DNA of 40,620 bases, from the NCBI GenBank assembly GCA_026712415.1, contig GCA_026712415.1_4696.1, one strand, 5' to 3'. Shown here in pieces: positions 1 through 40,620 of this stretch. The position numbers and the translations under genes are program-made. The notes under the pieces are model-generated. The model did not search any database and was not told where the DNA came from. It saw only the letters and a list, made by a program, of their open reading frames with translations. The stretch's first letter is position 1, and each line of letters opens with the position of its first letter. This DNA is from Escherichia coli. GTDB lineage: Bacteria; Pseudomonadota; Gammaproteobacteria; Enterobacterales; Enterobacteriaceae.

Positions 1-104
1 AGACGTGCACTGATGGTGAGCGCAAAGAGTTCACCTATTATAAGAAAGATGTAGCGGGTCGCATTGAGATTGCACGTAAGGTTGCAGACAATACGACTCA
101 CTAA
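1..104 (+). CDS. 3' fragment of the 185-aa membrane/coiled-coil protein (duplicate of 40478-40581 from contig wrap-around)
   Basis: Positions 1-143 are identical to 40478-40620; same reading frame and TAA stop (102-104) as ORF 40024-40581. Confidence 0.6.
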   Translation, partial: TCTDGERKEFTYYKKDVAGRIEIARKVADNTTH

Positions 105-111
105 TGGGAGA
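89..111 (+). promoter_or_regulatory. T7-type phage RNAP promoter (phi1.1B-like), overlaps stop codon of upstream ORF
   Basis: CAATACGACTCACTAATGGGAGA, 21/23 match to the T7 consensus, +1 G at 106. Confidence 0.8.
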
Positions 112-122
112 CACTGAAAGTT

Positions 123-160
123 AAACTCAAGGTCATCACATTTGGTGGCCTTCATGATTA
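123..160 (+). promoter_or_regulatory. RNase III processing site (T7 R1.1-like hairpin)
   Basis: AAACTCAAGGTCA...TGGCCTTCATGATT motif, same architecture as T7 R sites. Confidence 0.6.
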
Positions 161-10166: not shown

Positions 10167-10460
10167 ATGGCTATTACTAAACGTTTTAAAGTATCATTCG
10201 AAATGACCGTTAAGGTTGACTCTGAGACCGAAGTTATGATTCAGGAACGCATCTTGGATTTGGCTCGTAGCGTTCGTGATGGTGAGGAAGTTAGCGCACA
10301 GGACAAAGAGTTGCTCGTTCAGGCTCTGACTTATGGTGCCGATGGTGTTGTTGCCTTTGCTGTTAAGCAGGGCATTCGTAATGAAATCCGTGAGATGGGC
10401 ATTGAGCACCACGGTGAGGGCATTAAGTTTGCACCTGCAACTATCCGTGAGGTGAAGTAA
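10167..10460 (+). CDS. gp5.5-like protein (H-NS-binding family)
   Basis: AGGAGA RBS then ATG 10167; MAITKRFKVSFEMTVK... ending ATIREVK matches recalled T7 gp5.5. Confidence 0.8.
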   Translation: MAITKRFKVSFEMTVKVDSETEVMIQERILDLARSVRDGEEVSAQDKELLVQALTYGADGVVAFAVKQGIRNEIREMGIEHHGEGIKFAPATIREVK

Positions 10461-10669
10461 TGGGTGATTATCTACGTGTACTGGCGGCTATCAAAAGCTG
10501 CCCTAAGACCTTTCAGTCGAACTATGTGCGCAACAATGCGTCACTGGTGGCTGAGGCTGCGAGTCGTGGCCATATCTCTTGCCTATCAGTCGATGGGCGT
10601 AATGCTGGCGCTTGGGAAGTAACAGGCGCTGGTGTCCGATTCCTGAAGAAGATGGGAGGTTGCGTATGA
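10460..10669 (+). CDS. gp5.7-like protein
   Basis: 69 aa; AIKSCPKTFQSNYVRNNASLVAEAASRGHISCL matches recalled T7 gp5.7. Confidence 0.85.
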   Translation: MGDYLRVLAAIKSCPKTFQSNYVRNNASLVAEAASRGHISCLSVDGRNAGAWEVTGAGVRFLKKMGGCV

Positions 10670-10848
10670 GTATATCTAAAAGCGACACTGTAACGATGCC
10701 TCGTGAAGCATGGAATGATGTTAACGCATATATTGAGTTCCTTGAGGGTCGCCTAGCGAAGCTGAATGCTCTTGAGGCCCACGGTGTAGACAATTGGTGT
10801 GGCTACGATGATGCTGTAGCTGAACTCTTTACGGAGGATGACCTATGA
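10666..10848 (+). CDS. gp5.9-like protein (RecBCD inhibitor family)
   Basis: GGGAGG RBS then ATG 10666; acidic 60-aa product at the gene 5.9 position. Confidence 0.6.
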   Translation: MSISKSDTVTMPREAWNDVNAYIEFLEGRLAKLNALEAHGVDNWCGYDDAVAELFTEDDL

Positions 10849-23616: not shown

Positions 23617-26600
23617 GTGGATAAGTATAACCCGAACGAATCGCATGAATATGATGCGTTATTTCAACAAGCTGCTGACACACATGGAGTCTCCTATGGC
23701 CTTCTTCGGAAGGTCGGTTGGGTAGAGTCCCGCTTTAAACCTACGGCTCAATCACCAACAGGGCCACGAGGTGTCATGCAGTTCACTAAGGCAACTGGTC
23801 AGGCTTATGGTCTCCAGAACGATGAGGACTTCGCTGACCCGGCTAAGTCCATTGATGCTGGTGCTCGTTACCTTGCAGACCTCGTTAAGAAATACAATGG
23901 GGATGAACTTAAAGCTGCCCTAGCGTACAACCAAGGTGAAGGGAGCAACGGTAAGCCACAACTGGAAGCCTACGATTCTGGTAACTTTGCTGGCATCGGT
24001 GATGAAGGTCGTAACTATCTGCGTTCACTTCTGGATGTCGCTAAGTCACCTAAGAGTGGGGACATCGAGTCATTCGGTGGTATCACCCCAAAGGGTAAAG
24101 GGATTCCGTTTGATGCTGCGATGAGTGGTATCGGGAAGAAAGGAAAGGTAACAACTGAACTCCCTGAGTCTCACGAAATGTCCTTTCAAGGTAAAGAACA
24201 GGCCGCTCCCAATCAGCCGTTCGGAAAAGATTATTGGGAAGCCAAAGGTACAACTCTTGACGAAGCAAACGAGCGTTCAACCTTCTTCGGATTCGGTAGT
24301 GCTGCTGAAGCAGAACTCTCAAACTCAACCTTGGGTGTTGCCTTCCGTGCTGGTAAGCGTGACAATGGTTTTGATGTGCTCACTGATGTACTTCAACCGA
24401 CACGGTTTAACAGCCACATTTGGTCGCCTGAAGAACTCGATAAGATTCGCAAAGAAGTGAAGAACCCTGCGTACATGAACGTTGTGCTTGGTGGTTCCGC
24501 TGAGAACCTTGACGAGCTAATCAAGATGGCTAATGAGAACTTCGAGTTGGACTCTAAGGCTGCTGATGCGGGTCTAGGTGCCAAGCTGTCTGCTGGTCTT
24601 ATTGGTGCTGGTGTTGACCCGTTGACCTACGTTCCTATCGCTGGGACTGCGGCTAAAGGGTTCAAGCTGGTTAACAAGGCGTTGATTGTAGGTGCTCAAG
24701 CTGGTGCACTTAACGTTGCCTCTGAAGGTCTGCGTACATCGGTTGCTGGTGGTGATGCACATTATGCTGAAGCTGCCCTTGCTGGGATGTTACTGGCTGG
24801 TGGACTGACTTCTGTGGCAGATGGCGTTGCTGCGGGTCTCCGTAAGTCTGGTGCTGAACAGATTGAGAACCCCTTTGCTGCTGCACAGATGCGCTTTGAG
24901 ACTCGTGAGACTGCACGTAACACTGGTGGTTATGACGCAAGCCGTATGCCTCCTAGTGAAGACCGAGTGTTCTCACAGCACAACGGCGTTGAGTATGCAC
25001 CACTGGAAACTGAACCGGGTGCTGTAGTGTTGCGTGATGGTTCCATTATCAGTGACACAAACTTGGCTAACCCGATGACAGCCAAAGAGTTCGAAGAAGT
25101 AGACCCTGAACGTGCTGCGTGGGGCTTGCCTATGCGTGGATTGAGTGAAATCGGCTTGAGGACTTTACGTTCTGAACATGCTGAAATCCGTGGTCTCGCT
25201 AAGGACTTAGTGCGTTCACCTACAGGTATGGAGTCAGGCTCACATGGTAAGTTTGGTTCCACTACATCGGACATCATAGAGCGACTGCGCAGTCTCAATC
25301 ATCGAACCTACAATAACCTATATGGTGCAATGAAGGAAGCGATGGCTGACCCTGAGTGGTCTGTTGGTATGTTCAAGAGTGGTGCTCAAGGTGCCCGTCA
25401 ACAAATCTATCGTCGTACTAGTGAGGCTATCGAGAGACCTGAACTTCAGGCCAACTTGACCAAGGCAGAACGTAAGGTGATGGACATCGTGAAGGAACAC
25501 TATGACCTCAAGCGTGAGATGATGGAGAACCCGTCGATGTTCGGTAACAAGGCCACCTCTATCTTCCCTAACAGTCGTCACAAAGGGACTTACGTTCCTC
25601 ATGTGTACTCACGGGAAGCCAAGCAGTTGTACTCACAGGCTCTTGGGGGCACTGATGGTTTACAGGAAGCAGTTGCTGCAAGCCTGATGGCATCATATCA
25701 TGCACGCCCTGAAGTTAAGGCCCGTATTGATGAGATGCTGGCAGAGCAGTTACGGGTATCCAAACCAGCGGGTAAGACTGCGGGTACTACACCCAATAAG
25801 CCCTCTTCTGTCAACACAGCAAGTTACCAGATGAAACTGGACGATACAGCTACACAGGCAAGTGATAAGGTATTGGAACTAAAAGACGTCATGACCAACG
25901 CTGAGAAGCGAGTTGCGGACCGTGAAAGGAAACTCCAGAACTCCAAGGACAGACTGGCTTCGCATGAGGCTAAACTGAAGGAGTTGGAAGAAAAACTAGC
26001 TGCTAAACCTAATAGCAAAACCATTCCTGTTAAGATTGAGAGCCGGAAGCAGATGATTGAGACCCAGAAGTCTCGCATCCGTATTAACACAGAGCGTCTC
26101 GACTACATGAAAGGACAGGCTGCTAAGGTCCAAGACAGAATCACCAAAGCAACCGCCGAAGCTGAGGAAGCCGCCTCTGCTGCCAAAGGGCAGAAGACTA
26201 CTGGTGGCGGTGAAGACACTATCGTTGGTGAAGCCACATCGGGTAATGCACCTCAATCAGTACAAGAGGTGACTATGGATATGGTCGAGAAGTACGCTAT
26301 GGACAAGGCTTACGGTATTACGAAGACCGATGAGTTCAACTCTTCAAGTGTCATTGACGATAACATTGAGGGTCTCGTTGGGATTGAGAACAACTCATTC
26401 CTTGAAGCCCGTAACCTGTTTGATTCTGACGTGCCAATCACTCTACCGAACGGGCAACAGTTCTCTGTGAATGACCTCCGTGACTTCGATATGAAGCATG
26501 TGATGCCAGCATATGACCGCCGTGTTGATGGTGATATTGCTATCATGGGAGGCACAGGTAAGACTACTGCTGAACTCAAGGACGCTATTATGGCTCTTGA

Positions 26601-28062
26601 TAAGAAGTCTGAAGGTAAAGGTACAATGAAAGGTGAAGTGGAAGCACTTAAGGATGTCGTTAAGATTGTCACTGGTCGTGCTCGACGCAATCAGGATACT
26701 GTAGGTGACACTATGGTCCGTGCTCTGTCCGATATGTCCTTCTTCACGAAGAACGCATATATGGGCTTGCAGAACCTAACCGAAATCTCCGGTATGTTGC
26801 AGAAGGGTAATATCCGTGCGATGCTTCATGGCATTCCGGTACTGCGTGACTTAGCGTTCCGCAACAAGCCAGTCTCTGGTAGTGAACTCAAAGAACTCCA
26901 CTCTATGGTGTTCGGTAAAGAGTTTGATGACTTAGTCCGACCTACTCGTCAAGACATCATTCAGCGACTCCGTGAGTCCACTGATACACCTGATGTTGCC
27001 GCAAAGGTTGTTGGTTCTATCAAGCACACAACTCAAGAACTGGCGGCTCGCTCACCTCTCACCAAGTTCCTCAATGGTACGTCAAACTACCTTCTGGACA
27101 TGGCCCGACAGGGTGTGATGGGTGATGTGGTAACTCATGCTATCACTGGAAAGGGTGCCAACAAGTGGATTAAAGGTGACATGTTGAAGTCTGCGAGTAT
27201 CTCTAAGGAACAGTGGGAAGGCATTCAGGCTCTCATCCGTGAGAACGTTACCCGTGGGGAAGATGGTAAGTTTACCTTCAAGGATAAGAAGGCTCTGGCT
27301 AATGACCCTCGTGCTATGGACTTGTGGCGTTTGGCTGACAAGGTTGCTGATGAAACGATGCTTCGACCTCATAAGGTTTCCTTACAGGATTCCCATGCGT
27401 TTGGTGCCACCGCTAAGTTAGTCCTTCAGTTTAAGTCGTTTGTCATCAAGTCGATGAACTCTAAGTTTATCCGCTCCGGTCACGAAGCCTTTAAGAACCA
27501 GCGTGCTATGGACATGGCGCTGACCTATGCAATCTCTGGTGGTATCGCTGGCTCCTACTATGTGGCACAGGCCCACTTGAAGGCTGCTGGTCTTCCTAAA
27601 GAGCAACAGAAGGATTACTTGAAGAAAGCTCTCGACCCGAAGATGATTGCCTACGCTGCGGCCTCCCGAAGTTCACACTTAGGGTCGCCTCTGAGTATCG
27701 CTAACTTCGCTATGGGTGCTGCTGGTTACGACCAAGGTCTTATGGTTCGCTCTACGATTCTACCGAAAGGTGATGACAAGCGTGAGCGCAACAAGGCGGT
27801 GACTTCTCGTGACATGGGTGATTCCATTATGGGCGCTATTGGTGAACAGGTTCCTGCTCTTGGCTTCGCTGGTGCTGCTCTAGCTACTGGTCGAAATGCT
27901 TATGGTGTCCTTACGGCTCCTAACAAACCGACCGAGCGTGAGATGATGACTGGCTTAATGAATGCTCACCGAGAGATGATTCCTAACGATCCAATCTCTC
28001 AACAGATGCTCATTAAGTTCTATGAGGCCAACGGTGTTCACATTAAGGCTGACAAGAAGTAA
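23617..28062 (+). CDS. internal virion protein D with N-terminal lytic transglycosylase domain (gene 16); GTG start
   Basis: 1481 aa; SLT-like N-terminus (VMQFTKATGQAYGL) and colinear identity to recalled T7 gp16, except a ~170-aa coiled-coil segment with no T7 counterpart. Confidence 0.93.
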   Translation: MDKYNPNESHEYDALFQQAADTHGVSYGLLRKVGWVESRFKPTAQSPTGPRGVMQFTKATGQAYGLQNDEDFADPAKSIDAGARYLADLVKKYNGDELKAALAYNQGEGSNGKPQLEAYDSGNFAGIGDEGRNYLRSLLDVAKSPKSGDIESFGGITPKGKGIPFDAAMSGIGKKGKVTTELPESHEMSFQGKEQAAPNQPFGKDYWEAKGTTLDEANERSTFFGFGSAAEAELSNSTLGVAFRAGKRDNGFDVLTDVLQPTRFNSHIWSPEELDKIRKEVKNPAYMNVVLGGSAENLDELIKMANENFELDSKAADAGLGAKLSAGLIGAGVDPLTYVPIAGTAAKGFKLVNKALIVGAQAGALNVASEGLRTSVAGGDAHYAEAALAGMLLAGGLTSVADGVAAGLRKSGAEQIENPFAAAQMRFETRETARNTGGYDASRMPPSEDRVFSQHNGVEYAPLETEPGAVVLRDGSIISDTNLANPMTAKEFEEVDPERAAWGLPMRGLSEIGLRTLRSEHAEIRGLAKDLVRSPTGMESGSHGKFGSTTSDIIERLRSLNHRTYNNLYGAMKEAMADPEWSVGMFKSGAQGARQQIYRRTSEAIERPELQANLTKAERKVMDIVKEHYDLKREMMENPSMFGNKATSIFPNSRHKGTYVPHVYSREAKQLYSQALGGTDGLQEAVAASLMASYHARPEVKARIDEMLAEQLRVSKPAGKTAGTTPNKPSSVNTASYQMKLDDTATQASDKVLELKDVMTNAEKRVADRERKLQNSKDRLASHEAKLKELEEKLAAKPNSKTIPVKIESRKQMIETQKSRIRINTERLDYMKGQAAKVQDRITKATAEAEEAASAAKGQKTTGGGEDTIVGEATSGNAPQSVQEVTMDMVEKYAMDKAYGITKTDEFNSSSVIDDNIEGLVGIENNSFLEARNLFDSDVPITLPNGQQFSVNDLRDFDMKHVMPAYDRRVDGDIAIMGGTGKTTAELKDAIMALDKKSEGKGTMKGEVEALKDVVKIVTGRARRNQDTVGDTMVRALSDMSFFTKNAYMGLQNLTEISGMLQKGNIRAMLHGIPVLRDLAFRNKPVSGSELKELHSMVFGKEFDDLVRPTRQDIIQRLRESTDTPDVAAKVVGSIKHTTQELAARSPLTKFLNGTSNYLLDMARQGVMGDVVTHAITGKGANKWIKGDMLKSASISKEQWEGIQALIRENVTRGEDGKFTFKDKKALANDPRAMDLWRLADKVADETMLRPHKVSLQDSHAFGATAKLVLQFKSFVIKSMNSKFIRSGHEAFKNQRAMDMALTYAISGGIAGSYYVAQAHLKAAGLPKEQQKDYLKKALDPKMIAYAAASRSSHLGSPLSIANFAMGAAGYDQGLMVRSTILPKGDDKRERNKAVTSRDMGDSIMGAIGEQVPALGFAGAALATGRNAYGVLTAPNKPTEREMMTGLMNAHREMIPNDPISQQMLIKFYEANGVHIKADKK

Positions 28063-28063
28063 A

Positions 28064-28086
28064 CAATACGACTCACTATTGGGAAG
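28064..28086 (+). promoter_or_regulatory. T7-type promoter (phi17-like)
   Basis: CAATACGACTCACTATTGGGAAG; transcript 5' hairpin GGGAAG...CTTCCC. Confidence 0.8.
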
Positions 28087-28134
28087 GCTCTCACAGCTTC
28101 CCTCCTATTATATCTAACCGAAAGGAGGCTACAG

Positions 28135-30060
28135 ATGGCTAACAAAATTTCCACTGTACGTACTTACCCGCTGAACGGTGCCGTGAACTTCACGATTACC
28201 TTTGAGTATTTAGCACGTAAGTTCGTCCAAGTGACACTCATCGGGAAAGACCGTAAAGAGTTGGTTCTCAATCAGGACTATCGCTTTACCACTAAGACCC
28301 AAATCACAACCTCCCGTGCGTGGACTGCTGCCGATGGTTATCAGATGATTGAGATTCGTCGATTCACTTCTGCAACCGACCGTCTGGTTGACTTTGCTGA
28401 TGGCTCAATCCTTCGTGCGTATGACCTTAACATCTCACAGATTCAGACGCTGCACGTAGCTGAAGAGGCACGAGACCTAACTGCGGATACCATTGGTGTC
28501 AACAATGATGGTCACTTGGATGCCCGTGGTCGTAAGATTGTGAACCTAGCGTTCGCTACCAGTGACTACGATGCTGTCCCTCTGAAGCAAGTAAAAGAGC
28601 GCGAGTCGTCTGCTTGGAACGCTGTTAACAAGGCCAATGAACACGCTAACCGCTCTAACACTGAGGCTAACCGATCGCGAGATGAAGCTGACCGTGCAAA
28701 ACGTGAAGCTGACCGCTCAACCCAACAGGCAGGTGTCTCTACGGCACAGGCGGTTGAGTCCAAGAAGCAAGCTGACCGTTCCAACTCTGAGGCTAACCGA
28801 GCTAAAGGTTATGCTGATAGTATGACCGCAAGTGTAGCTGAGGCCAAGAAGCAAGCTGACCGTTCTAACTCTGAGGCCAATCGTGCCCGTGATGAGGCCA
28901 ATCGTGCTGCCGGAGAAGTGACTAAGGCTGCTGCTGAGGTTGCCAAAGCCGCTGCACACGTTGCTACCGCTGATGGACATGCTGACAGAGCCAACACTGA
29001 GGCAAACCGCTCCAAGAGTGAAGCTGACCGTGCAAAGACCGAGGCTGACAAGTTAGGGAATATGAATAACTTAGCGGGAACCATTAAAGCGGTTAATGGT
29101 GAGAACGTTGTTTTTAAGAATGATGTTGTAGCACCCGGACAGATTACTGGTGAAAAGGAAGTAAGGGCTGGCGCAGGTCAATCGTTTAGCGTGTTAACAA
29201 GGAACTCGTTGCAGCTTGTGAACCAGAACTTCGCTGATAGAAATATGAGGTTCTTCGTATGGGGGAATGACCAAGGACGTGCAAACGTATTTGAGTTAGG
29301 TGGTAGCGGTAATGGGTACTATATGTATATCCAGAAGGCTAACCTTAACGACACATTTTGCCAGATGCGAGTGAATGGACATATGGAGGCTGCTGGTGGG
29401 CTTACGGTTGGACAATCAGGTGACTTCACTGGAATCTTACAGACTCGCTCACAGAACCTGCTGATGATTAACTCTGCTCGTCGACATATTCAAATGAAAA
29501 CCAGCGATAACTACACCGATGGTTATCTTTACAAAGACCCCGGCGCTGGGGCGTGGAGGCTTAACTTTGGTCAGGCAGCTAACAGGGAGTATACGTTTGA
29601 TTCAAATGGTACATTAACATCCAACTCAGGCTGGTACATTCCACCAGATGGTAACTTATACATCACGAAGTATGATTCTTACATCGACGGTTGGGTCAAC
29701 AAACGCCTTGGAGAACATGCCTACAATAAAAGCGAAGTAAACAACCTAGTCAATGGACGGTTAACTCAAGCGCAAGCTGATGGTCGATACGTCAATAAGA
29801 ATGCTGGGTGGGCTGAGGTCTGGAAAGGCTCTGCTGGTGGTGGTGTCTCGGTAGGTCTCTCACAGGATGTTCGTTGGAGAACCATCTGGATTCAGACCAA
29901 TGGTCGCTGGAACGCCGTTCCTATTGGTGACAATGCGGCTTACTTCATCTCGTCTGATGGTGGTTGGTTGAAGTTCACAATCTCCAACAACGGCAGAACT
30001 TTCCGTAACGACCAAGCCTACCGTTCAGTCCCTACGCGAATCTTAGTTCAAAACCAATAA
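28135..30060 (+). CDS. tail fiber protein (gene 17)
   Basis: 641 aa; N-terminal tail-attachment domain (FEYLARKFVQVTLIG...DGSILRAYDLN) and C-terminal tip (VWKGSAGGGVSV...YFISSDGGWL) match recalled T7 gp17; central region carries ADRSNSEANRA-type repeats. Confidence 0.93.
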   Translation: MANKISTVRTYPLNGAVNFTITFEYLARKFVQVTLIGKDRKELVLNQDYRFTTKTQITTSRAWTAADGYQMIEIRRFTSATDRLVDFADGSILRAYDLNISQIQTLHVAEEARDLTADTIGVNNDGHLDARGRKIVNLAFATSDYDAVPLKQVKERESSAWNAVNKANEHANRSNTEANRSRDEADRAKREADRSTQQAGVSTAQAVESKKQADRSNSEANRAKGYADSMTASVAEAKKQADRSNSEANRARDEANRAAGEVTKAAAEVAKAAAHVATADGHADRANTEANRSKSEADRAKTEADKLGNMNNLAGTIKAVNGENVVFKNDVVAPGQITGEKEVRAGAGQSFSVLTRNSLQLVNQNFADRNMRFFVWGNDQGRANVFELGGSGNGYYMYIQKANLNDTFCQMRVNGHMEAAGGLTVGQSGDFTGILQTRSQNLLMINSARRHIQMKTSDNYTDGYLYKDPGAGAWRLNFGQAANREYTFDSNGTLTSNSGWYIPPDGNLYITKYDSYIDGWVNKRLGEHAYNKSEVNNLVNGRLTQAQADGRYVNKNAGWAEVWKGSAGGGVSVGLSQDVRWRTIWIQTNGRWNAVPIGDNAAYFISSDGGWLKFTISNNGRTFRNDQAYRSVPTRILVQNQ

Positions 30061-33962: not shown

Positions 33963-34405
33963 CCTTATGTACCCTCTATGGTCTACAGGGTCTCTTAGGG
34001 TCTCTCACGTAGTCTCACCTTATGATATAGCCTCTGTGGTTAACCTTATGAGACTTGATGTACCCCTTTAAGAATCCTACAGAAAAATCTGAGTGAGTAT
34101 CTCATAGTTCATAAACACCGAGTCCCCCCCCCTATGGCCTCCTTCAGTCCACCCAAAGAGCCTTCCTCTATGGTAACTCATGGTTTACCTGAAGTCAATC
34201 CTTTTGTGAGACATTGGGTTAACTCTAGGTGTAACCACTAGATATGGTGCTTAGTGATACCTTATGACCACTATATGTAGTCCTCTCTGTGTCCCTATCT
34301 GTAAGTGACCCTAGAGTTATCACCTTATGTCACCTCCTTATGTCTATCCTTATGGCTGCCTATCCTTATGTTAACCTTCAGTCAGTGCCTTATGTTTATC
34401 AGTGA
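33963..34405 (+). repeat. dispersed CCTTATG heptamer repeats (9 copies) flanking the predicted genome terminus, analogous to the T7 CCTAAAG end repeats
   Basis: Copies at 33963, 34018, 34044, 34260, 34334, 34347, 34359, 34375, 34399; five are clustered at 12-24 bp spacing. Confidence 0.7.
34100..34330 (+). other. predicted physical left end of the packaged genome and collapsed direct terminal repeat (extent approximate)
   Basis: TCTCATAGTTCA...CCCCCCCCC at 34100 resembles the recalled T3/T7 left terminus (TCTCA...); lies between gene 19.5 and the early promoters. Confidence 0.4.
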
Positions 34406-34534
34406 CCAATAGGCTTCGTCACAAAGGGAAATCACTATCTCACTCTGTTTAGCAGTCCCTGAGTGATGAGAGGGACAAGTAGAATCGACTGAGTGCCTAT
34501 AGTGCCTTAAAGGTGGCTGATAGTCAATAGCCTT

Positions 34535-34557
34535 TAATGCGACTCACTATTGAGGAA
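34535..34557 (+). promoter_or_regulatory. T7-type promoter (phiOL-like)
   Basis: TAATGCGACTCACTATTGAGGAA. Confidence 0.65.
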
Positions 34558-34658: not shown

Positions 34659-34690
34659 TTGACATTGATAATAGCTTATGAGACTATAGC
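34659..34690 (+). promoter_or_regulatory. host sigma70 early promoter (A1-like)
   Basis: -35 TTGACA, 17-bp spacer, -10 region GACTAT/TATAGC; layout like T7 A1. Confidence 0.65.
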
Positions 34691-34793: not shown

Positions 34794-34822
34794 TTGACTC
34801 AACGAAAGCAATAACGTAGTAT
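34794..34822 (+). promoter_or_regulatory. host sigma70 early promoter (A2-like)
   Basis: -35 TTGACT, 17-bp spacer, -10 TAGTAT. Confidence 0.7.
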
Positions 34823-34888: not shown

Positions 34889-34918
34889 TTGACAAGTAGC
34901 AACAACAAGATGTAAGAT
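34889..34918 (+). promoter_or_regulatory. host sigma70 early promoter (A3-like)
   Basis: -35 TTGACA, 18-bp spacer, -10 TAAGAT (same hexamers as T7 A2). Confidence 0.7.
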
Positions 34919-35034
34919 GTACGACATAACGTTCTTGTGAAGTCCTACACTGAAAGGGACTCGGTGCTAACAAACCTGCACTTAAAGCTCTTTAACAATT
35001 TGGTGACAATAGCACTCTTGAGATGGCGGCACTA

Positions 35035-35082
35035 GCGATTAACTCAAGGTGACTCGAAAGAGAAGCCTTTATGATAATCACT
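35035..35082 (+). promoter_or_regulatory. RNase III processing site (R0.3-like)
   Basis: TTAACTCAAGGTGACTCGAAAGAGAAGCCTTTATGATAATCAC. Confidence 0.6.
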
Positions 35083-35106
35083 GTAACCAACATCGAGGCA
35101 ATCATC

Positions 35107-35565
35107 ATGATTCACACTAAAGAGCAAGCTAATGTTTTCTATGTACTGGTAAGCGCATTCCGTTCTAACCTCGACGATGAGGTCAACATGAGTCGCCACC
35201 GCCACATGGTTAACAACCTGCGCAACGCACCGGGTCTTTATGGTAGCGTTGAGTCTACCGATTTAACTGGCTGTTACCGCGAAGCCATCTCAAGTGCACC
35301 AACTGAAGAGAAAACAATCCGTGTACGTTGTAAAGACAAGGCACAGGTTCTCAATGTCGCACGTCTGGCATGTAATGAGTGGGAACAAGATTGCGTGCTG
35401 GTCTATAAATCACAGACTCACACGGCTGGCTTAGTGTACGCTAAAGGCATCGACGGGTACAAAGCTGAACGTCTACATGGTAGCTTCCAAGAAGTCCCAC
35501 GCACCGAGGCACTGAAAGGCTGCTTCACTATTGATGAGTTCGGTCGCCGCTGGCAAGTACAGTAA
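35107..35565 (+). CDS. S-adenosylmethionine lyase ('SAMase', T3 gene 0.3 type anti-restriction protein)
   Basis: 152 aa from ATG 35107; near-identical over most of its length to recalled T3 SAMase (NVFYVLVSAFRSNL...GSVESTDLTGCYREAISSAPTEEKT...CFTIDEFGRRWQVQ). ORF-track start 35071 lies inside the RNase III hairpin. Confidence 0.9.
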   Translation: MIHTKEQANVFYVLVSAFRSNLDDEVNMSRHRHMVNNLRNAPGLYGSVESTDLTGCYREAISSAPTEEKTIRVRCKDKAQVLNVARLACNEWEQDCVLVYKSQTHTAGLVYAKGIDGYKAERLHGSFQEVPRTEALKGCFTIDEFGRRWQVQ

Positions 35566-35567
35566 GT

Positions 35568-35615
35568 GATAAACTCAAGGTCGCTCAATATGAGTGGCCT
35601 TTCATGATTATCATT
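35568..35615 (+). promoter_or_regulatory. RNase III processing site
   Basis: GATAAACTCAAGGTCGCTCAATATGAGTGGCCTTTCATGATTATC. Confidence 0.6.
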
Positions 35616-35638
35616 TAACATGCAATAGGACTAACACC

Positions 35639-35839
35639 ATGAGTAAACTTCTGGCAACATCTAAAATCAAAGGTCAATGCACTGTAACACTGCGAGAGTA
35701 TGATCACGGGGCAATGGGTAGCACCTACGTTGTACGATACGGTAAACAAGTCACGCATTGGGTGAACGAGGTTTTGGCGCAGGAAGAATACCAAGCCTGC
35801 GTGATACACCAAGCAACATGTGCAGGCTGGAATGACTGA
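35639..35839 (+). CDS. hypothetical early protein (66 aa)
   Basis: First ATG downstream of the RNase III hairpin; Cys/His-containing small protein. Confidence 0.5.
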   Translation: MSKLLATSKIKGQCTVTLREYDHGAMGSTYVVRYGKQVTHWVNEVLAQEEYQACVIHQATCAGWND

Positions 35840-35883: not shown

Positions 35884-35930
35884 AGTGATAAACTCAAGGT
35901 CGCTCCTAGCGAGTGGCCTTTATGATTATC
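35884..35930 (+). promoter_or_regulatory. RNase III processing site (R0.5-like)
   Basis: GATAAACTCAAGGTCGCTCCTAGCGAGTGGCCTTTATGATTATCAC, near-identical to recalled T7 R0.5. Confidence 0.7.
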
Positions 35931-35960
35931 ACTTTTGAAACAACGCACGGGATTAATATC

Positions 35961-36123: not shown

Positions 36124-37209
36124 ATGAACTACACCGACATTCAGGCACGTCTGGAAATCATCAAGTCTCTTCCGATTAGTGACTTGGACAAGCGCCAGCC
36201 TCTTCTGGTTGCACTGGCTGCTGACATCGTGAACGGTGAAACATGCGATGGTAACGATACAAACGGGTCGCAGTGTCTTGAGTATCAGGACTGGTGGAAC
36301 ACCTTGGGCGCTCTCATGCGTGATGCAGGTTTTCGTATGTTGGGTAATGGTCATTTTAGTGCGGCCTACTCGCACGAAATGTTACCGGGTCGAGTCATCA
36401 AGGTTGGCTTTAAGAAAGAGGATTCAGGCGCAGCATACACTGCATTCTGTAGGATGCACCAAGGCCGAGCGGGTATCCCTAACATCTATCACGTAGCACG
36501 TCATGCAGGTTGCTATACGGTCGTACTGGACCGCTTACATAGCTGTGACGACGATAATTATGACCATGAGGTATACGCTGACCTCGCACGTTACTTTGTG
36601 GAGTCGGATTGCCATGACGCAAGCGACTTTGCACCGGGTGACTACGAGTTCATCGAGACTTGCAAAATGATTCGTGAGTTCTTCAAAGGGATTGCATCTT
36701 TCGACATGCACAGCGGGAACATTATGTTCGACGATAACGATGTTCCGTACATCACTGACCCAGTCAGCTTCTCACATGACCGTGAACGTGAGGACGGTTT
36801 CCCTCTGGACCCTGAAGCACTGCTGGCCGAGGTCGAGGCTGTAGCGCAAGAACGCATGATTGAACGATGTCGCAACCGCAAGGCCAAGCGTGACCCTAAC
36901 GGCTCCTTTCAGGTTAACCGCAAGGCCGCAATGAAACGCCGCAAGCGTAACCGTAAGTTACACGTCAAAGGTATGGCACAGTTTGTTAAAGGTCGCATCG
37001 AACGCAGGGCCATTGATAGGAACGAACGCCGCGCTGAGATGCTCATGGGGTCTGCATGGAATAACTTCTGGTTCCGCAATGGTCCCTCAGCGGCACGCAA
37101 GGTTGAACAAGTGAACGGCCTCAAGTGGCAACTAGGGGACCGCCTAGCAATCCAAGCGGGTCTCCCTCTGAACATTGACAAGTTACTTGACGCACAACTG
37201 CAAGGCTGA
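36124..37209 (+). CDS. serine/threonine protein kinase and host-transcription shutoff protein (gene 0.7)
   Basis: 361 aa; DWWNTLGALMRDAGFRMLGNGHFSAAY...VIKVGFKKEDSGAAYTAFCRM...FDMHSGNIMF...VPYITDPVSFS match recalled T7 gp0.7. Confidence 0.93.
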   Translation: MNYTDIQARLEIIKSLPISDLDKRQPLLVALAADIVNGETCDGNDTNGSQCLEYQDWWNTLGALMRDAGFRMLGNGHFSAAYSHEMLPGRVIKVGFKKEDSGAAYTAFCRMHQGRAGIPNIYHVARHAGCYTVVLDRLHSCDDDNYDHEVYADLARYFVESDCHDASDFAPGDYEFIETCKMIREFFKGIASFDMHSGNIMFDDNDVPYITDPVSFSHDREREDGFPLDPEALLAEVEAVAQERMIERCRNRKAKRDPNGSFQVNRKAAMKRRKRNRKLHVKGMAQFVKGRIERRAIDRNERRAEMLMGSAWNNFWFRNGPSAARKVEQVNGLKWQLGDRLAIQAGLPLNIDKLLDAQLQG

Positions 37210-40023: not shown

Positions 40024-40581
40024 ATGTTTACTTTAATCACTTCAGTAGGCGCTCTCGTATCAACCATTCTTGCAGCAACATACTATAATCGTTCAAAGGT
40101 ATTTCTCACTAAGCTAATCAAAGAAGAGAAGAACTCTCATGCACTCAAAGAGAGACTTGAAGATGGTTGGCGAGAGAAGCAGGAACTAGCTGGTCGAATC
40201 CGTACCTTAGAGTTCGAACAACAATATGACATGTCGAACCAACGAGAACTCATCGAGCGTCTACGCGCTGAGGCAGTGGAGTACCGCAAGGAACTTAAAG
40301 AGGCAAAGAGTACCATCCGTGAGTACACTCACAGTGACATCACGTCTATCAAGTTTACTGCTCACATACCGGATGCTGGCTGGAAGCGCACTGAGTTCAA
40401 GCTGGGTCTTGGCTCATGTGGTAAGCAAGTCACTTGCCTACATTGGGTTGAACAAGCCGACCGCTATCTGCTGACAAAGACGTGCACTGATGGTGAGCGC
40501 AAAGAGTTCACCTATTATAAGAAAGATGTAGCGGGTCGCATTGAGATTGCACGTAAGGTTGCAGACAATACGACTCACTAA
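40024..40581 (+). CDS. hypothetical membrane-anchored coiled-coil protein (185 aa)
   Basis: GAGGAAA RBS; N-terminal TM helix, heptad-rich central segment, Cys-containing C-terminal domain; stop codon lies inside promoter 40566-40588. Confidence 0.7.
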   Translation: MFTLITSVGALVSTILAATYYNRSKVFLTKLIKEEKNSHALKERLEDGWREKQELAGRIRTLEFEQQYDMSNQRELIERLRAEAVEYRKELKEAKSTIREYTHSDITSIKFTAHIPDAGWKRTEFKLGLGSCGKQVTCLHWVEQADRYLLTKTCTDGERKEFTYYKKDVAGRIEIARKVADNTTH

Positions 40582-40620
40582 TGGGAGACACTGAAAGTTA
40601 AACTCAAGGTCATCACATTT
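40478..40620 (+). repeat. contig wrap-around overlap (identical to 1-143)
   Basis: Exact 143-bp identity with the window start; the gene order is continuous across it. Confidence 0.9.
40566..40588 (+). promoter_or_regulatory. T7-type promoter (same element as 89-111 through contig wrap-around)
   Basis: CAATACGACTCACTAATGGGAGA. Confidence 0.8.

Follow-up and report, generated by a model that had tools for sequence, protein, structure and literature searches.

A recombinant T3-type SAM lyase allele in gene 0.3 of a 285P-like Berlinvirus

Gene 0.3 and its setting in the early region

The window (the whole 40,620-nt stretch of DNA analyzed here) carries, at 35107..35565 on the + strand, an open reading frame of 459 nt that runs from ATG to TAA and encodes 152 amino acids (152 codons plus stop). 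A Shine-Dalgarno motif, GAGG, is located at 35095-35098 (+), 8 nt 5' of the ATG, and T3 has GAGG at the same spot. An upstream ATG at 35071, which would give a 164-aa product, was rejected as the start, since it lies inside the R0.3 hairpin, is without a good Shine-Dalgarno motif and is used by no relative; it is also disfavored by the T3 N-terminus (M1-N9), which is the structurally seen MetK-binding tail. The context of the internal Met28 start of T3 gene 0.3 is likewise kept, and the corresponding putative start is listed in Table 1 together with the surrounding features.

The product matched the Pfam family PF23780 (S-AdoMet_lyase) with 145.8 bits (E=9e-43) over profile positions 1-132 of 133, the curated cut-off being 28 bits, and a phmmer search against all PDB chains returned the T3 SAM lyase (7OCK/8BB1) as the sole real match (E=3.4e-91). 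Both proteins are 152 aa long and collinear, aligning without gaps from 1-152 on 1-152, with 138/152 identical residues (90.8%) and 14 substitutions; among these are F3->H, in the tail that binds MetK, and, at residues 132-137, RTEA-K in place of the T3 KGAP-Q. The first-pass annotation had given the product as nearly identical over most of its length to the T3 SAMase; the Pfam, PDB and residue-identity results confirm this similarity, and the full-length alignment supports the SAMase homology. As judged from these comparisons, the predicted function as a SAM lyase is secure. At the DNA level, the gene is only 82% identical to T3 gene 0.3, and the genome around it is ~70% identical to that of T3 and carries T7-type, not T3-type, promoters.

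The T3 SAMase family has been characterized as lyases that produce 5'-methylthioadenosine (MTA) and homoserine lactone, with T3 E68 as the counterpart of the key Glu69 in Svi3-3 (Guo et al., PMC7877911). The T3 SAM lyase also binds and inhibits MetK, the E68Q/Q94A protein is catalytically dead, and full anti-BREX action needs both activities (Andriianov et al., bioRxiv 10.1101/2023.02.27.530186); the same dual mechanism is given for type I restriction in a review (PMC12707154). The catalytic or substrate-positioning residues E68, Q94 and D95 (T3 numbering), whose mutants are inactive, are all identical here (3/3). Of the MetK contacts in T3, namely M1, I2, F3, T4, K5, A8, N9, Q103, T104 and T106, with H105 in a supporting role (bioRxiv 10.1101/2023.02.27.530186), every one except F3 is kept (10/11, H105 included), and the strictly conserved T4, Q103, T104 and H105 are all among the retained residues. 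The histidine at position 3 is also found in all Berlinvirus alleles of the 285P type (class I, defined below).

The enzyme activity and the anti-restriction phenotype are thus attributed to the gene 0.3 product by analogy with T3, and the course of events would be as follows. The early transcript would be cut by RNase III at the hairpins flanking gene 0.3, and the 152-aa SAM lyase would be among the first proteins made. By homology to the T3 SAMase, it would cleave SAM to 5'-methylthioadenosine and homoserine lactone, and through its N-terminal tail and beta4-beta5 loop it would bind the host SAM synthetase MetK, blocking SAM resynthesis. The cell would then be deprived of the cofactor for type I (and type III) restriction enzymes and for BREX.

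The first 143 nt of the window (1-143) are the same as the last 143 nt (40478-40620), indicating that the window is a circularized, permuted assembly with a unit of 40,477 bp. The ends of Kvp1 and FE44 have been sequenced and determined experimentally, and when the window is aligned to them, its physical left end falls near 34101; the direct terminal repeat (~194 nt by comparison with Kvp1) is collapsed to a single copy in the assembly. With the left end at that position, gene 0.3 starts ~1007 nt into the genome (T3, 901; T7, 925; Kvp1, 1004), and the description of it as the first early gene holds for this inferred end. In T3 as well, gene 0.3 comes first after A1-A3 and R0.3.

Upstream of gene 0.3, counted from the left end, there are exactly three TTGACW hexamers (34659, 34794 and 34889), each followed after 17-18 nt by a plausible -10 hexamer. 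They precede the start codon by 448, 313 and 218 nt, as compared with 463, 336 and 211 nt in T7 and 458, 329 and 218 nt in T3. In 285P, the three sites recur almost without change, and some bases are substituted in Kvp1, FE44, BSP161, PZJ0206 and P151; the A1-like hexamer is the TTGACT variant in Kvp1, FE44, BSP161 and PZJ0206. The sites are conserved in most of the Berlinvirus relatives compared; the number of such hexamers is only two in Berlin and four in 285P. A generic sigma70 scan returned seven sites, not above the 5.3 +/- 2.5 in shuffles, and reported only two of the three promoters, the A1-like site being under its threshold; the distance of this site to gene 0.3 is that of the T7 and T3 A1. 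Since the scan is not significant alone, the case for the promoters rests on positional conservation across relatives. The proposal of three strong sigma70 promoters is therefore borne out with respect to three conserved sites at T7/T3-like distances, and their strength is presumed. Three TTGACW promoter-like sites are also found in Kvp1 (548, 683 and 778), at distances to gene 0.3 matching those in the window, T7 and T3; only one host-type promoter was reported in the Kvp1 paper (PMC2579914).

A scan of the whole window against Rfam at gathering thresholds returned no family, and the RNase III hairpins listed in Table 1 are thus without any curated Rfam model.

Table 1 Features of the early region around gene 0.3
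Feature	Position	Strand	Basis or remark
phiOL-like phage-RNAP promoter (TTAATGCGACTCACTATTGAGGA)	34534..34556	+	just 5' of the host promoters as in T7/T3; equivalent site in relatives
A1-like sigma70 promoter (TTGACA, 17 nt spacer, GACTAT)	34659..34687	+	conserved in 285P and P151
A2-like sigma70 promoter (TTGACT, 17 nt spacer, TAGTAT)	34794..34822	+	generic scan and conservation
A3-like sigma70 promoter (TTGACA, 18 nt spacer, TAAGAT)	34889..34918	+	10/12 consensus matches; scan and conservation
R0.3-type RNase III hairpin of the gene 0.3 leader (stem-loop with a bulge)	35033..35083	+	-14.5 kcal/mol, z=-2.8; aligns with T3/T7 sites
Gene 0.3, 5' 354 nt	35107..35460	+	285P/Kvp1/FE44-type allele, 99% nt identity
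Gene 0.3, crossover interval (gene nt 355-383)	35461..35489	+	breakpoint analysis; most conserved part of the gene
Gene 0.3, 3' 76 nt	35490..35565	+	PZJ0206-type allele, 100% nt identity; 59% to 285P
Putative internal start in the same frame (T3 '0.3B', Met28)	35188..35565	+	conserved GAGG 5'; predicted from context alignment and T3 annotation
R0.5-type RNase III hairpin after gene 0.3	35563..35617	+	-22.7 kcal/mol, z=-5.2; aligns with annotated T7/T3 sites
66-aa early ORF (phrog_6500), function not assigned	35639..35839	+	PZJ0206/P151/P694/WW2-type cassette
Third RNase III-type hairpin	35884..35933	+	-22.1 kcal/mol, z=-5.6; nearly identical to T7 R0.5
T7 gene 0.6A-like ORF, 45 aa	35961..36098	+	79% aa identity to T7 gp0.6A
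Gene 0.7, serine/threonine kinase	36124..37209	+	phrog_2828, E=2e-178
Gene 1, RNA polymerase, 883 aa	37283..39934	+	T7-type specificity residues, Berlinvirus lineage

Genome relationships and promoter specificity

The phage promoters comprise 15 distinct + strand sites with the consensus YAATACGACTCACTAWTGGGAG, which agrees with that of T7 at positions -17 to -5 and differs at -2 and -1. Eight sites are within three mismatches of the T7 consensus (seven distinct, one being the copy in the duplicated end), and no site in the window comes that close to the T3 consensus. In the RNA polymerase, N748, R746, R756, Q758, R96 and K98 are as in T7, and the discriminating residues N748, R96 and K98 are D, K and R in T3. 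The T7-type promoter specificity noted earlier is thus corroborated by both the promoters and the enzyme. The polymerase itself is 76.2% identical to that of T7 and 75.3% to that of T3, as compared with 82.2% between T7 and T3, and 97-99% identical to the enzymes of 285P (99.2%), Berlin and P151. As these closely related polymerases all carry the T7-type residues, the T7-like specificity is a trait of the Berlinvirus lineage; it is possibly the ancestral state, and since it occurs throughout a lineage lying outside the T7-T3 pair, the T3 specificity may be a derived one.

The genome is 94.2% identical to 285P over 95% of its length, 90% to P151 over 88% and 86.7% to Berlin over 87%, as compared with 70.3% to T7 (72% aligned) and 70.8% to T3 (71% aligned). 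The products of identity and aligned fraction are 89.9 for 285P, 79.5 for P151, 75.6 for Berlin, 50.6 for T7 and 50.3 for T3, and the ICTV guideline for a genus is ~70% genome-wide nucleotide similarity. The genome belongs to the genus Berlinvirus (Studiervirinae), to which the similarity, the Berlin-type promoters and the RNA polymerase all fit. Since the value for the closest genome compared is below 95, the phage is probably a separate species.

The combination of a T3-type SAM lyase with T7-type promoter specificity had been taken to indicate a mosaic between T3-like and T7-like lineages, that is, a hybrid with the SAMase early region from a T3-like lineage and the RNA polymerase and promoters from a T7-like one. 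The SAMase is indeed the protein with the highest amino acid identity to T3 in the genome (91%; next 85% and 83%) and the lowest dN, the promoters and polymerase specificity residues are of the T7 type, and a T7-like 0.6A ORF lies in the window. The whole-genome comparison argues against such a hybrid, however: the identity profile in 500-nt bins is flat, at ~67-74% to T7 and to T3 alike, and there are no near-identical blocks, the maximum over at least 200 bp being 78.9% for T3 and 78.8% for T7, so that none exceeds 79%. The genome is equidistant from the two phages, and its RNA polymerase is an outgroup to the T7-T3 pair. Moreover, the synonymous difference between the SAM lyase gene and T3 (pS 0.55-0.57, with 0.57 in the direct comparison) is that of the backbone genes, which range over ~0.5-0.9 genome-wide. 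The SAM lyase gene is therefore not a recent T3 graft, and a recent transfer from T3 was likewise rejected in a per-gene test, in which its pS was no outlier among the backbone genes.

The same SAM lyase gene occupies the same locus in five other Berlinviruses (Kvp1, 285P, FE44, BSP161 and PZJ0206), and the whole configuration is common to several Berlinvirus species; a T3-like gp0.3 together with Berlin-type promoters was described for Kvp1 in 2008 (Lingohr et al., PMC2579914). In the BASEL study, the tested Studiervirinae outside Teseptimavirus had a SAM hydrolase at the gp0.3 locus, like T3 (PMC8594841). We thus consider a T3-T7 hybrid origin extremely unlikely, and the mosaic between the two lineages is not supported; the SAM lyase and the T7-type promoter specificity are genus-wide Berlinvirus traits, not a T3 graft on a T7 backbone. 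Because the synonymous divergence is ordinary, the high conservation of the SAM lyase points to constraint rather than recent import, and the 91% amino acid identity fits strong purifying selection, although an old inter-genus exchange would look alike.

Taken together, we assign 35107..35565 as gene 0.3 of a Berlinvirus, a 285P-like phage of the T7 group, encoding the genus's own T3-type SAM lyase, with a probability of about 0.9.

An intragenic recombinant of two Berlinvirus allele classes

In an ungapped comparison over 459 nt with 285P, Kvp1 and FE44, gene 0.3 showed 0-3 mismatches per 51 nt up to nt 357 and 14-22 mismatches per 51 nt thereafter, and the mismatch profile against PZJ0206 was the opposite. 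At the sites that differ between 285P and PZJ0206, 71/73 were of the 285P type up to nt 354, and 31/31 were of the PZJ0206 type from nt 384, with the best breakpoint after gene nt 354 (Fisher P=1.9e-24). Gene 0.3 is thus an intragenic recombinant of two Berlinvirus allele classes, which we term class I (285P, Kvp1, FE44 and BSP161) and class II (PZJ0206, P151, P694 and A7), and the real mosaicism of this phage is within the genus Berlinvirus.

The relatives of the two halves differ accordingly in their surroundings. The genes of 285P, Kvp1 and FE44 are 99% identical to the present one over nt 1-354 and share the same three host promoters, R0.3 leader and backbone, but they differ in the last 76 nt; in these phages and BSP161, gene 0.3 is directly followed by a T3-like 0.6 gene, and no RNase III site lies between them. 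The Enterobacter phage PZJ0206, on the other hand, has identical last 76 nt and only 79% identity over the first 354 nt, and its early region is ordered as here: SAM lyase, RNase III site, 66-aa ORF, RNase III site, 0.6A and 0.7. PZJ0206-like DNA runs on downstream to at least 38065, and with the crossover at gene nt 355-383 the phage also acquired the downstream cassettes of the PZJ0206 type.

The C-terminal 25 residues belong to an allele class other than that of the body, which may affect folding or partner binding, and the chimeric allele might in principle be functionally impaired, either decaying or left with only one of the two activities. In a collection of ~15 billion sequences, the neighboring 66-aa and 45-aa proteins are present and this exact protein is not, and the source alleles of body and tail differ at 11 of these 25 residues. 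The ORF is, however, intact and of full length, with all tested functional residues kept, and dN is zero against 285P for codons 1-120 and zero against PZJ0206 for codons 121-152, so that the two halves copy alleles found intact in the phage isolates 285P and PZJ0206, respectively. In addition, the PZJ0206-type tail is nearer to the T3 tail than the 285P-type tail is (82% versus 71% nt). An impaired allele therefore appears very improbable.

Over nt 1-354, class I and class II share only 76-80% identity, a distance like that which separates each of them from T3. This raises the alternative that SAM lyase alleles entered the Berlinviruses repeatedly, from other genera of the Studiervirinae, in which case the history of the gene would differ from that of the backbone, though no transfer would be recent. 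Such an exchange would account for two allele classes in phages with ~90% identical backbones, with a pS between the classes (0.54) about as large as that from T3 (0.57-0.58), for the variable cassette content of close relatives and for the top protein matches (94%), which come from phages other than Berlinviruses, those of Klebsiella among them. No donor from another genus was found, however, the synonymous sites are so near to saturation that direction and timing cannot be read from them, and a long-standing allele polymorphism kept by within-genus recombination explains the same data. We regard repeated old exchange between genera as the less likely origin of the two classes, though one that deserves consideration, and retain the recombinant between two Berlinvirus alleles as our description of gene 0.3.

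Anti-restriction cassettes, hairpin repeats and annotation

The SAM lyase had been described as standing in place of Ocr. T7 Ocr occupies the same genomic slot and serves the same purpose, neutralizing type I restriction and BREX at the onset of infection, but it is an unrelated protein that acts by DNA mimicry rather than by depletion of the cofactor by a SAM lyase. In tblastn searches over the whole window, T7 Ocr gave nothing better than E=5.1 and P151 Ocr gave no match up to E=10; homologues of 0.4, 0.5, T3 0.6 and T3 0.65 were also searched for in the window, and none was found. The description is thus accurate insofar as the window holds no Ocr homologue, but it is too strict as a rule, since both genes lie side by side in P151, P694 and A7. 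In the genomes compared, the locus contains the SAM lyase only (the window, PZJ0206, 285P, Kvp1, FE44 and BSP161), the SAM lyase followed by Ocr-0.4 (P151 and P694), Ocr followed by the SAM lyase (A7), Ocr only (WW2) or neither (Berlin), and the Berlinvirus Ocr copies are 92-97% identical to T7 Ocr at the amino acid level. As one genus holds either, both or neither, SAMase versus Ocr is unfit as a marker of T3-like or T7-like ancestry. In P151 (PP083182.1), an intact 152-aa SAM lyase ORF lies unannotated at 27822-28280, directly 5' of the annotated Ocr-like gene.

The 66-aa ORF downstream of gene 0.3 is bracketed by two RNase III-type hairpins. Phage P483 encodes an identical protein, and many Berlinvirus-like contigs have close copies. 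The ORF travels as its own cassette, being present in PZJ0206, P151, P694 and WW2 and absent from 285P, Kvp1 and FE44.

Hairpins of this kind were found at every cassette boundary examined in A7, WW2, P151, P694 and PZJ0206. The left flank of the R0.5 hairpin in the window corresponds to the hairpin at the SAM lyase-Ocr junction of P151, and its right flank to the hairpin after 0.4 in P151, indicating that the window and P151 differ by an Ocr-0.4 cassette between two direct hairpin copies. The hybrid R0.5 site is the expected remnant of a repeat-mediated deletion or insertion of this cassette. We therefore put forward, at somewhat less than even odds, that the repeated ~50-nt RNase III hairpins double as recombination joints through which the anti-defense cassettes of Berlinviruses are shuffled; these cassettes would comprise the SAM lyase, Ocr-0.4, the 66-aa ORF and 0.6A, and the same would perhaps apply to all Studiervirinae. 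A literature search returned no paper proposing RNase III hairpin repeats as recombination joints.

In sum, a known gene is found here as a new allele, in a phage that probably represents a new species of an established genus. As an anti-restriction and anti-BREX factor, gene 0.3 is well understood, and the result matters little beyond correct annotation, although the presence of the SAM lyase helps to predict plating on hosts with type I restriction-modification or BREX. RefSeq and PHROG (phrog_2226) label the SAM lyase family as 'SAM-dependent methyltransferase', a wrong name that will lead automatic annotation astray. Ocr is also mislabeled, as 'protein kinase' or 'receptor binding protein kinase', in P694, IME390, PHB19/20 and some T7 records.

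Several differences from the relatives were observed elsewhere in the genome. Gp16 (internal virion protein D; 23617..28062) has 1481 aa, as compared with 1315 aa in 285P and P151, with an in-frame segment of ~567 nt (25735-26301) in place of the 69 nt of the relatives; the extra segment is K/E/A-rich and coiled-coil-looking, and it gave no Pfam match. The gp17 tail fiber (28135-30060) is only 80% identical to that of 285P at the amino acid level, and its distal part, especially 29001-29500, has almost no nucleotide match in T7, T3 and P151 and only a weak one in 285P and Berlin, so that its receptor specificity or host may be a different one. A gp5.5-like ORF (10167-10460) is only 54% identical to its 285P counterpart, and a 60-aa gp5.9-like (RecBCD inhibitor) ORF (10666-10848) is present here with no match in 285P; both are further small cassette differences on a backbone that is 94-96% identical.
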